NCBI GenBank assembly: GCA_965197525.1
Contig: OZ240211.1
Span: 736,001 to 800,000 of the forward strand
Source: Nitrosopumilus sp.
GTDB lineage: Archaea; Thermoproteota; Nitrososphaeria; Nitrososphaerales; Nitrosopumilaceae
Direction: 5' to 3'
DNA length: 64,000 nt
Part shown: positions 10,382 through 12,453 of the stretch, piece by piece
Layout of the letters: every line of letters starts with the position of its first letter
Numbering within the stretch: the first letter of the stretch is position 1
The notes under the pieces: model-generated
The model's database searches: none
What the model was told of the DNA's origin: nothing
Seen by the model: the letters and a program-made list of their open reading frames with translations, nothing else
Made by a program: the position numbers and the translations under genes

Positions 10382-10585
10382 GATTATCATCATATCTGAA
10401 ACTAGTATCGACAGATACGAGACTACCTTTACAATATAATTATGCAATACTGATATTTAACTAACACTATTGTGGGTTCTGTGTAATCTTCGTGATATGG
10501 AATAGAGTTGTTGGGACATGAAATTATGATTCTGTTCTGCAAAGTTATGACCTAATTAGAGAAGATCTACCCTTACATCTAAATC

Positions 10586-10768
10586 TTAACGTACCCTTTC
10601 TTTGTTCCAATACGGAGACTTGCATTTCTTGTTGTTGCAGTTTTTAGGGGATTCATTCCTACTGTACCAAATCTCATTACACCTGTTGCACTCGTGTCGC
10701 CAATATGCACCATCAACTTTCATGCTCATACACTCTATACCAATTAGTAGTATATAATTTATTCCCAT
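10586..10768 (-). CDS. Small Zn-finger protein, IS passenger
   Basis: HECNRC...CNNKKCKSPYW cysteine pattern. The true start may be the internal Met at ~10723. Confidence 0.6.
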   Translation of the reverse strand: MGINYILLIGIECMSMKVDGAYWRHECNRCNEIWYSRNESPKNCNNKKCKSPYWNKERVR

Positions 10769-10825
10769 ATCTACTTAAAACCCATACTAATATATATGGG
10801 TAATAGGTATAGTATAAATCAAGTA

Positions 10826-10919
10826 AAAGTGATTGGCGATGATGAAGCCGTGACAATCATATCTGAGGAAAGCAGAGATGATGTTAAATTACCTACAAGG
10901 TATCTGAGCCAATCACTTT
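10826..10919 (+). ncRNA. Box C/D-like sRNA
   Basis: 12-bp terminal stem (10826-10837/10908-10919), box C ATGATGA 10839-10845, D' CTGA 10863-10866, C' ATGATGT 10878-10884, D CTGA 10904-10907. TATATA at 10791-10796 and a T-rich tail. Confidence 0.75.
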
Positions 10920-10962
10920 CTTTCCTACTTGGTTCTATATTAATTTTCGAGGGGTCTTACAC

Positions 10963-12099
10963 ATGAACGCAAGAGCACAAAGAGCAAGACAGATTATGGA
11001 GATGGATAACCACGCATCCCAAATCGTAGGCGAGAACAAATACAAGGTTAGATCACAAACCATCCCAGACAAGTATTACATCATAACCAAAACTGATGAT
11101 GGATTGGTATGTGATTGTCCAGACCACATCAAAAGACAATCTGACTGCAAACATATCAAAGTGGTATTAGAATATTGCAAGAAGAATGTCTTTGACCATG
11201 ACGGATTTAGAATCATGGAAAGGGCACAGCTCAAATTATGCAAGTACTGCGATTCTGGTAATGTTGTAAAGAGAGGGATTAGAAAAACCAAGAAAGGACA
11301 AAATCAATTATTCAAATGCACAGATTGCAAAAGAACATTTACAGCCAACTTTGGGTTTGAGAAGAAACAGTTTGACGAGAATGTTATAACTGGAGCTTTG
11401 CAGATGTACTACTCGGGAATGTCGGTAAGGGATATTTCAAATCATTATGAGATGATGGGAACTGAGGTTAGTTTCAAGACTATCTACAACTGGATTGATA
11501 GATATTCCAAGATGGCATCTAACTATCTAAACGAAATAACTCCACGTGTAGGGGACTGGCTCAGGGCTGACGAGGTATGGGTAAAGATTGCAGGAAATCA
11601 AAATTATGTTTTTTTAAGTATGGATGATGATACAAGGTATTGGTTAGCTAGTGATATAGCAGACAACAAGTTCCAACACAACGCAGACAATTTACTACAC
11701 CTAACCAAAACACAAGCTGGCAAAACCCCCAAGCACTTCATTACAGACAAGTTACCAGCTTATATGAAATCATCCAAAAAGATATTTGGCAAAAAGACAC
11801 ACCACACTGCAAATGCAGGAATCAGAAGCAAGAGAACGGGTCAGAATTTCCACCCCTCAAATAACAAGATGGAACGCCTGAATGGCGAGATCAGGGATCG
11901 TGAGAAAGTGTTCAGAGGACTCAAAAAGATGGATACTCCTGTATTGGATGGTATGCGTGTATACTACAACTACACAGAGAAACACGGTGCACTCGAAGGA
12001 CAAACTCCAGCAGAATCAGCCAAGATTACAGTAGATGGTAAAAACAAGTGGAAGACTATCATACAGAATGCGAGTTTGTATAAGAATAATTCAGTCTGA
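10963..12099 (+). CDS. IS6-family-like DDE transposase with N-terminal SWIM-type and Zn-ribbon domains
   Basis: CDCPDH...CKH, CKYC...CTDC; catalytic ADEVW, ITDKL, KMERLNG. Confidence 0.9.
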   Translation: MNARAQRARQIMEMDNHASQIVGENKYKVRSQTIPDKYYIITKTDDGLVCDCPDHIKRQSDCKHIKVVLEYCKKNVFDHDGFRIMERAQLKLCKYCDSGNVVKRGIRKTKKGQNQLFKCTDCKRTFTANFGFEKKQFDENVITGALQMYYSGMSVRDISNHYEMMGTEVSFKTIYNWIDRYSKMASNYLNEITPRVGDWLRADEVWVKIAGNQNYVFLSMDDDTRYWLASDIADNKFQHNADNLLHLTKTQAGKTPKHFITDKLPAYMKSSKKIFGKKTHHTANAGIRSKRTGQNFHPSNNKMERLNGEIRDREKVFRGLKKMDTPVLDGMRVYYNYTEKHGALEGQTPAESAKITVDGKNKWKTIIQNASLYKNNSV

Positions 12100-12345
12100 T
12101 TATTTTTGGTTTTGAATGTCTTTTTTGATTTCTGTCATATCATCTTGCAGTTTGTTGAGTTTTTGACAGTTAATTTGAGTTTGTTCTTTCAGTGCTTTAA
12201 TATCCTTCTTGACATCAGTTCTTAATCCTTTAATATCCTTCTTGACATCAGTTCTTAGTTTTTTAAACTCATCATGAAGGCTGTCCTGTTTTTTGTCAGA
12301 TTTCTTAATTGCACGTAATACATCAACTATGGTTTTATCAGTCAT
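12100..12345 (-). CDS. Small coiled-coil repeat protein, IS passenger
   Basis: Heptad-like LRTDVKKDIK x2 (29-bp direct repeat, period 33, at 12196-12224 and 12229-12257). Abuts the transposase stop. Confidence 0.6.
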   Translation of the reverse strand: MTDKTIVDVLRAIKKSDKKQDSLHDEFKKLRTDVKKDIKGLRTDVKKDIKALKEQTQINCQKLNKLQDDMTEIKKDIQNQK

Positions 12346-12453
12346 ATCAACATGATATTGTATATCAGATATTAAACCTATCTTTAGTCTAATGATTCAG
12401 CCTACGACTTTATTCATTCCATATCACGAAGATTACACAGAACCCTATTGTGT

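Follow-up and report, generated by a model that had tools for sequence, protein, structure and literature searches.

A putative box C/D RNA inside an IS6 element of Nitrosopumilus lies within a leader reading frame that overlaps the transposase start

The window, a stretch of 64,000 nucleotides from Nitrosopumilus sp. (assembly GCA_965197525.1, contig OZ240211.1, positions 736,001 to 800,000), contains an IS6 element of 1970 bp at positions 10475-12444. Its ends are marked by 29-bp inverted repeats (left, GGTTCTGTGTAATC..., 10475-10503, + strand; right, 12416-12444, - strand), outside which an 8-bp target-site duplication, CTATTGTG, stands on both flanks (10467-10474 and 12445-12452). Counted with its outermost base pair, which is shared with the duplication, the inverted repeat is perfect over 30 nt. 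The terminal repeats start GGTTCTGTG and fit the GG...CTGT consensus of the IS6 family (PMC7986276). Within the element, an IS6-family DDE transposase of 378 aa (10963-12099, + strand) matches Pfam DDE_Tnp_IS240 (PF13610) with 42.1 bits at a cut-off of 27, and has a cysteine/histidine-rich, zinc-finger-like stretch at its N-terminus. Two small passenger genes accompany it: a divergent 60-aa four-cysteine zinc-ribbon ORF (10586-10768, - strand), a possible regulator for which Pfam holds no family, and a convergent 81-aa charged, repetitive ORF (12100-12345, - strand) with no Pfam match above cut-off.

The region between the zinc-ribbon ORF and the RNA described below (10735-10815) contains a repeated word that includes the TATA-like motif, here CCCATA-N8-TATGGG. 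Element-specific direct or inverted repeats of such a word, 10-20 nt long and likewise including the TATA-like motif, are present in the equivalent promoter regions of eight other loci (L021, L022, L025, L026, L032, L037, L050 and L084). These divergent-promoter repeats look like operators, perhaps for the zinc-ribbon protein.

Directly upstream of the transposase gene lies the sequence at the centre of this analysis. The original prediction was of a canonical box C/D RNA carried inside an IS6 element, with a 12-bp perfect terminal stem enclosing four boxes in the right order, and we confirmed the boxes and the stem at their coordinates on the + strand, along with the inverted repeats and the duplication of the surrounding element. 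The core RNA (10826-10919) begins with the 5' stem arm AAAGTGATTGGC (10826-10837), followed after one spacer base by the C box ATGATGA (10839-10845), the D' box CTGA (10863-10866), the C' box ATGATGT (10878-10884, with a final T where the consensus has A) and the D box CTGA (10904-10907), which abuts the 3' stem arm GCCAATCACTTT (10908-10919); all 12 bp of the stem are complementary. C (RUGAUGA) and D (CUGA) boxes joined by a terminal stem form a kink-turn, and archaeal box C/D sRNAs, which are bound by L7Ae, Nop5 and fibrillarin and accumulate as stable small RNAs, normally have C separated from D', and C' from D, by about 12 nt. Box order and stem are canonical here, but the spacers measure 17 and 19 nt instead of 12.

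How readily might such a pattern arise by chance? A regular expression for the four boxes matched ten times on both strands of the 2.21-Mb genome (39.6% G+C): twice in copies of this element, with 12-bp stems, seven times in one tandem repeat array and once with a 2-bp stem. Because a long stem occurs among these ten matches only in the two IS copies, chance can be excluded for the focal pattern. The tandem repeat (genome 1403970-1404288) has a 42-bp period containing ATGATGA...CTGA and so imitates the four-box pattern seven times, a trap for pattern-based sRNA searches. The fold of the 122-nt region surrounding the focal RNA reaches -37.2 kcal/mol, compared to -22.3 +/- 3.5 for shuffled sequences (z = -4.2), and includes an outer 6-bp helix (10820-10825 with 10926-10931) that prolongs the stem, giving an extended RNA at 10820-10931. 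Across eight focal-type homologues, four of the 12 stem pairs change on both sides with 94.7% of cells paired, and in the outer helix 95.8% of cells are paired. Searching Rfam with the focal RNA yielded only sub-threshold matches to generic C/D snoRNAs (at most 22.8 bits where gathering thresholds are 44-50), and no sister RNA reached a gathering threshold either; since Rfam C/D families are guide-specific, a missing match is no argument against membership in the C/D class. Genes for fibrillarin and Nop5 are present in the genome. On this evidence we regard the focal sequence as a true archaeal box C/D RNA of the double kink-turn kind.

The RNA has moved with its element. A second copy of the element (copy B, genome 1956394-1960520, 4.1 kb) has the same inverted repeats at its ends as the focal copy (copy A) and its own 8-bp duplication, TTTAATAG, and carries an RNA 96% identical to the focal one. 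The two copies, with CTATTGTG and TTTAATAG as their respective duplications, represent two independent insertions, so the element has carried the RNA to a new site on at least two occasions. Copy B itself has a frameshifted transposase and about 2.3 kb of extra DNA between its left end and the zinc-ribbon ORF. That ORF is kept in copy B and in a fragment at genome 1395080-1395336. In a third copy (copy C) the transposase is intact (89% amino-acid identity) and the RNA at the same position is a different, C/D-like one, and one remnant in the genome consists of the zinc-ribbon ORF together with copy C's kind of RNA. Four 1.3-kb elements without an IS6 transposase agree with the inverted repeat over its first 18-19 nt (genome 724290-725621, 838811-840158, 919007-920321 and 1567235-1568566). 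Inverted repeats were also sought around the elements of relatives, at six loci with a 10-nt seed, and not found; a location of the RNA inside the transposed element is proven for copies A and B only.

When species-representative genomes were scanned with the transposase, 69 loci emerged; one belongs to a Candidatus Methanoperedens MAG and the other 68 to Nitrosopumilaceae or related Thaumarchaeota. C/D RNAs occupy the equivalent position in at least 17 of the 69, and about half of the loci are empty there. The RNAs fall into several types. Two loci (L031 and L050) carry textbook C/D RNAs with spacers of exactly 12 and 12 nt and 7-8-bp stems. In a larger, hairpin type the C box is followed by an A-rich spacer, a degenerate D', a closing hairpin and a C' box resembling AATGACGA; a D guide of 12 nt and the D box come next, and the stem has 5 bp. 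Some further loci have homologues of the focal RNA. Pairing in the hairpin type covaries: over 12 RNAs, 91.7% of cells are paired (70.2% in shuffles), seven of nine pairs change on both sides, and the score of 0.678 compares with 0.26 in shuffles, none of 500 of which reached it.

A covariance model built from the hairpin type and run on 151 genomes of the family found matches in 12. Leaving out three genomes in which the match is a different, host-type sRNA (G077, G093, unpublished, and G149) and one with a weak match (G098), IS-type RNAs occur in eight published genomes from six genera, and nearly all strong matches lie 25-35 nt upstream of an IS6 transposase. None of the main conclusions depends on the unpublished genomes. 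The host-type sRNA (L094:1501-1590 in G149, L096 in G093 and L097 in G077) spans three genera and adjoins no transposase. It is laid out as CTGATGATGA, a 13-nt spacer, CTGA, ATGATGA and a spacer of 12 nt, after which TTGA replaces the canonical D box, with near-identical guides and a GGATGC/GCATCC stem; the model found none in the focal genome.

The position of the C/D RNA can also be taken by a tRNA-like gene, as seen at four related loci (L013:2375-2460, L015:2373-2460, L024:2366-2452 and L028:2366-2452) and in one paralogue of the focal genome (L082, near 701120-701300). ARAGORN labels the genes in this position as Ile-tat (86-88 nt) or Leu-cag (87 nt). At L013, L024 and P701 the reading frame that leads up to the transposase start opens with an ATG whose G seems also to be the first base of the tRNA-like sequence. 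In copies B and C the site of the focal 81-aa ORF, just after the transposase stop, is occupied by further tRNA-like genes convergent with the transposase (L002:2909-2995 (-) and L003:1409-1496 (+); ARAGORN calls Asp-atc and Leu-taa, 87-88 nt). It seems that small structured RNA genes accumulate to either side of the transposase in this IS lineage.

How is the RNA placed with respect to the signals that might express it? A TATATA motif had been noted about 30 nt upstream; it belongs to an A/T-only octamer, ATATATAT (10790-10797, + strand), 29 nt before the stem, which is a likely TATA box for a transcript comprising RNA and leader. In RNA-bearing relatives such octamers begin 28-31 nt before the ATG of a leader reading frame, and in RNA-less relatives 28-33 nt before the ATG of the transposase. 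This spacing would place the transcript start at the leader ATG. The RNA itself lies within the leader frame, in the position expected of a kink-turn operator.

Downstream of the RNA, a conserved tail (10936-10954, + strand) comprises an A/T-rich T-tract, TATATTAATTTT, in accordance with the T-rich tract predicted there, and then a Shine-Dalgarno-like GAGGGG 8 nt before the transposase ATG, which at 10963 stands 43 nt beyond the stem, likewise as predicted. This tail follows every RNA type as well as the tRNA-like variants and is missing from RNA-less relatives; its purine core is kept as GAGGTG, GAGGGG, GAGGAG or AAGGGG. It also includes an A/T octamer, at a distance of 27-29 nt from the transposase ATG, which could serve as an internal promoter for a leaderless, RNA-independent transposase mRNA.

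The original prediction made no mention of a reading frame that overlaps the RNA. In the focal copy this frame (10796-10966, + strand) runs for 56 codons from an ATG at 10796, or 45 from a GTG at 10829, spans the whole RNA and ends on a TGA that overlaps the transposase ATG (ATGA). In all 11 elements tested, the frame ending in ATGA spans the RNA and is the sole open one upstream of the transposase, with an open length of 120-300 nt as against 6-78 nt for the other two frames. It is open in each of the eight elements with an intact transposase, where it begins at the ATG nearest the promoter and either overlaps the transposase ATG or is fused to it in frame, and closed only among decayed copies, in three of nine. 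Fusion is seen in genome G100, where the RNA lies within the transposase ORF (419 and 414 aa), inside the first 45 or so codons. We also considered a programmed frameshift that would fuse leader and transposase upstream of the Shine-Dalgarno-like site; this is excluded, since the transposase frame closes within 78 nt upstream of its ATG in every copy, and at 9-12 nt in most of those of type 3 and type 4. The leader ATG seen in other copies has been lost from the focal one, where a 5-bp deletion leaves ATA in its stead; translation there would need to begin at GTG 10829 or at an ATG that is probably upstream of the transcript start.

One might argue that the leader peptide, or N-terminal extension, is all there is, and that Met-Met, Pro-Met-Thr and Ser-Glu codons merely happen to spell the boxes without any functional RNA. 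The frame is open and its start codon kept; one copy (L092), with degraded C and C' boxes, still retains a peptide-like frame; and changes in two close pairs fall mostly at third positions, although codon-position substitution bias as a test for coding gave a weak, mixed and underpowered signal overall. What this account struggles with is that the boxes are retained in homologous copies even where these read them in different frames: the C box encodes Met-Met (ATG ATG A) in some copies and Asp-Asp-Glu (GAT GAT GAA) in others, and both versions are found within G100. The peptide sequence, in turn, is poorly conserved, both helices change on both sides of their pairs, and L031 and L050 hold textbook C/D RNAs. 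We therefore consider a peptide-only explanation extremely improbable. At the same time, the distance from C to D in the hairpin type mostly varies by multiples of three (59, 65, 68), and in copies with a frame-shifting indel, another frame simply takes over the upstream part. With boxes kept as nucleotides, the peptide not kept and the frame nevertheless open, the pattern fits a need to translate through the RNA and not a need for a functional peptide.

At two loci (L046:2384-2470 and L070) the leader frame starts MNQRARKQMIE, which resembles the usual N-terminus of the transposase, and the "C box" ATGATTGA coincides with the Gln-Met-Ile-Glu codons. This likeness hints that the 5' part of the module may derive from a duplicated transposase start.

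If the RNA is a methylation guide, as the original prediction also entertained, its spacers should pair with rRNA or tRNA over about 9 bp or more, flush with the box. For the focal RNA no convincing target emerges: the D guide forms nine pairs with 23S rRNA, one of them G-U, and the D' guide eight, but 23% of shuffled guides also reach nine, and on 16S, 23S and tRNAs the focal guides are no better than chance. A genome-wide search with the 12-mers of the focal guides, allowing at most one mismatch, found nothing in stable RNAs. One cluster of matches to the guide complement (GTGTGGCGTTAT) turned out to be another repeated element and not a set of RNA genes.

The sister RNAs present a different picture, some of them having canonical 12-nt D guides that match conserved sites in 16S and 23S. 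A hairpin-type RNA at genome 1092327-1092425 pairs through its D guide at 12 of 12 positions (one G-U) with 23S GGAUAACAGGCU, which probably corresponds to the peptidyl-transferase-centre strand of the E. coli sequence, and a register-shifted relative pairs at ten of ten positions with the same site. Five RNAs from four genomes form 10-11 pairs with 16S GUCGUAACAAGG, and the three of these that we checked against the 16S of their own genomes pair equally well there. Guides with at least 11 pairs number two, compared to 0.18 expected from shuffles. Guide words also recur across different reading frames, and among carrier copies there is no synonymous change in TTG TTA CGA; constancy of this kind, irrespective of frame, shows constraint at the nucleotide level. 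The commonest guide word of the hairpin type, GAATTGCAC, has a 23S site with one central mismatch and no perfect rRNA target, own genomes included. The idea of a mobile methylation guide is thus backed by the 12-nt guides of sister RNAs and not by the focal guides, whose pairing equals that of shuffled ones.

The locus at 1092327-1092425 (L085:1501-1599) consists of the hairpin-type RNA and its tail without a transposase, the sequence stopping at the former ATG. This RNA may be a domesticated, IS-derived methylation guide.

These rRNA matches invite a view of the RNA as independent cargo: a free-standing methylation-guide sRNA with its own promoter and a T-tract terminator, spread by the IS and possibly of benefit to the host, over which the open frame has no function. 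Besides the matching guides and their constancy across frames, runs of 6-7 T directly after the 3' stem in focal-type homologues agree with this view, as does the fact that a tRNA-like gene can take the same place. It leaves unexplained, however, why the frame is open in every element with an intact transposase, why it ends on the transposase ATG or is fused to it and why indels keep it open; the focal RNA has spacers of 17 and 19 nt and guides that score like shuffled ones; and the hairpin-type RNA, which turned up in only a minority of the genomes scanned, does not serve a core function of the host. On balance we think cargo of this kind possible but rather unlikely as the main explanation.

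Might the guides serve the element itself, choosing targets or recognising ends in the manner of a bridge RNA or omega RNA? A spacer match that could suggest so exists: the D' guide of copy A forms 11 pairs (one G-U) with its own transposase mRNA at 11109-11119. We dismiss self-targeting as chance, since the pairing is gone in copy B, where the guide is identical, and absent at other loci. At no locus do guides show consistent complementarity to their own element or its flanks, and a tRNA-like gene or nothing at all can fill the position; IS6 DDE transposases, moreover, are not known to need an RNA. A guide for an element function, the third possibility raised by the original prediction, found no support and seems to us hardly credible.

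Comparison of close relatives is informative about how the module comes and goes. Loci L032 and L034 are near-identical and differ by one 123-bp block, which in L032 follows an ATGAAC and is succeeded by a second ATGAAC. Such near relatives without the module demonstrate that it is dispensable for transposition. On the simplest reading, transposases of this lineage are normally leaderless, and the module, placed between transcript start and transposase, supplies a Shine-Dalgarno-like site and a restart codon of its own. In a quick maximum-likelihood tree built from 53 transposases, RNA-bearing elements occupy all three deep clades. RNA type or presence is patchy between sister elements in the largest of these, and the tree requires 17 changes of RNA label where the minimum would be four. 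The module behaves as an exchangeable cassette at a fixed position.

Such exchangeability could mean that block and tail are a selfish or neutral cassette, which inserts or recombines at the first codons of leaderless IS6 transposase genes and survives, without any regulation, by restoring the transposase start site. The discrete 123-bp difference flanked by the direct repeat ATGAAC, the patchy RNA types and the 3' tail common to all variants are what one would look for under this scenario. Yet no insertion mechanism is known or visible, and recombination between copies, or deletion across the ATGAAC repeat, would produce the same pattern. In the P922/G100 clade all seven elements carry the RNA despite their deep divergence, which suggests retention by selection. 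We regard a cassette without regulatory function as improbable.

Our preferred explanation is that the RNA acts as a gate, that is, as a host-coupled attenuator of transposase synthesis embedded in a coupled leader, and among the possibilities raised by the original prediction the one that fits best is its L7Ae-bound leader or attenuator, with the RNA at the expected transcript start and the leader frame coupled or fused to the transposase. We hold the balance between this model being right and being wrong to be about even. It starts from the boxes, the covarying helices, the location in the transposed unit, the recurrent position, the open frame, coupled or fused, and the spacing of the promoter; transcription, protein binding and a competition between folding and translation are what we infer. 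The box C/D RNA is a mobile, built-in module of an IS6 lineage of Nitrosopumilaceae, and a promoter within the element would produce it as the very beginning of the transposase transcript. As the leader stop overlaps the transposase start (AUGA), each transcript would therefore have two possible fates. In one, the 5' end would fold, bind L7Ae, Nop5 and fibrillarin and end, or be trimmed, as a small stable RNP, and no transposase would be made. In the other, a ribosome starting at a 5'-proximal codon would translate through the RNA, melt its fold and then reach the Shine-Dalgarno-like site and the transposase ATG. The box C/D sRNA would be a by-product of the gate. The candidate internal promoter in the tail counts against this model, as do the lost leader ATG of the focal copy, the close relatives that manage without the module and the weak, mixed codon-position bias. 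Gate and cargo guide, its main rival, are not mutually exclusive. A broader proposition would unite them: that the merger of guide RNA and leader makes assembly of the methylation machinery and synthesis of transposase mutually exclusive, and that these IS6 elements of ammonia-oxidising archaea spread accessory guides for 2'-O-methylation of rRNA from genome to genome, among them guides directed at the 23S peptidyl-transferase centre and at the 16S 3' end. This we put forward tentatively, with more doubt than belief.

Elements of the proposed gate have counterparts elsewhere. In Pyrobaculum, C/D sRNAs that overlap the 5' ends of ORFs are thought to be co-transcribed with the mRNA, 88% of the overlapping guides are orphans, and the authors proposed that assembly of L7Ae, Nop5 and fibrillarin could interfere with translation initiation (PMC6009581). 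In our case, by contrast, a dedicated leader ORF, or else an N-terminal extension, takes in the entire sRNA and is coupled or fused to what follows, and the gene concerned is the transposase of a mobile element in a mesophilic Nitrosopumilaceae archaeon. Experiments in Sulfolobus established that L7Ae represses translation at kink-turns in the 5' UTR or just after the start codon (Daume et al. 2017, PMC5539422; see also Huang et al. 2019, PMC6298567). The IS6 leader resembles these operators in having a kink-turn in the leader or after the start codon, but the operators are single kink-turns without guides in cellular genes, whereas here a complete C/D plus C'/D' RNA resides in an IS and binding is predicted.

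Among bacterial insertion sequences, a short upstream frame can overlap the transposase start, so that expression is low and dependent on upstream translation. The frame described here overlaps the transposase start likewise, but it additionally contains a structured, putatively RNP-forming RNA and its peptide is not conserved. The element shares with the IS6/IS26 family (Varani et al. 2021, PMC7986276) the IS240-type DDE transposase, the GG...CTGT ends and the 8-bp duplications, and differs in its greater length (1970 bp), its two small passenger ORFs and its RNA module; the family review records one member with a passenger gene and no RNA cargo. A literature search turned up no description of C/D RNAs within IS6 or another autonomous IS. 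The nearest precedent is provided by MITE-like sRNA copies in Pyrobaculum: elements of P. calidifontis resemble C/D sRNAs, multiplied transposon-fashion with orphan or poorly conserved guides as here (Lui et al. 2018, PMC6009581). Those elements are short and non-autonomous, with inverted repeats flanking the sRNA, whereas the present RNA is carried internally by an autonomous IS6.

Box C/D RNAs usually count among the housekeeping genes of the host, while IS6 elements pass for minimal transposons that lack RNA components. In the present case they are interlocked both physically and through translation, an arrangement that recurs in several genera of ecologically dominant archaea and for which the evidence is comparative throughout. 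If the gate model holds, a mobile element would tie its activity to the ribosome-biogenesis machinery of its host, a natural counterpart of the L7Ae/kink-turn switches of synthetic biology. Should the sister RNAs indeed direct rRNA methylation, ribosome modifications would spread horizontally with insertion sequences as their vectors, with concrete sites open to RiboMeth-seq in mesophilic archaea, where few guides are known. The system is also relevant to the origin of C/D guide genes, their movement and the way in which their guides change.
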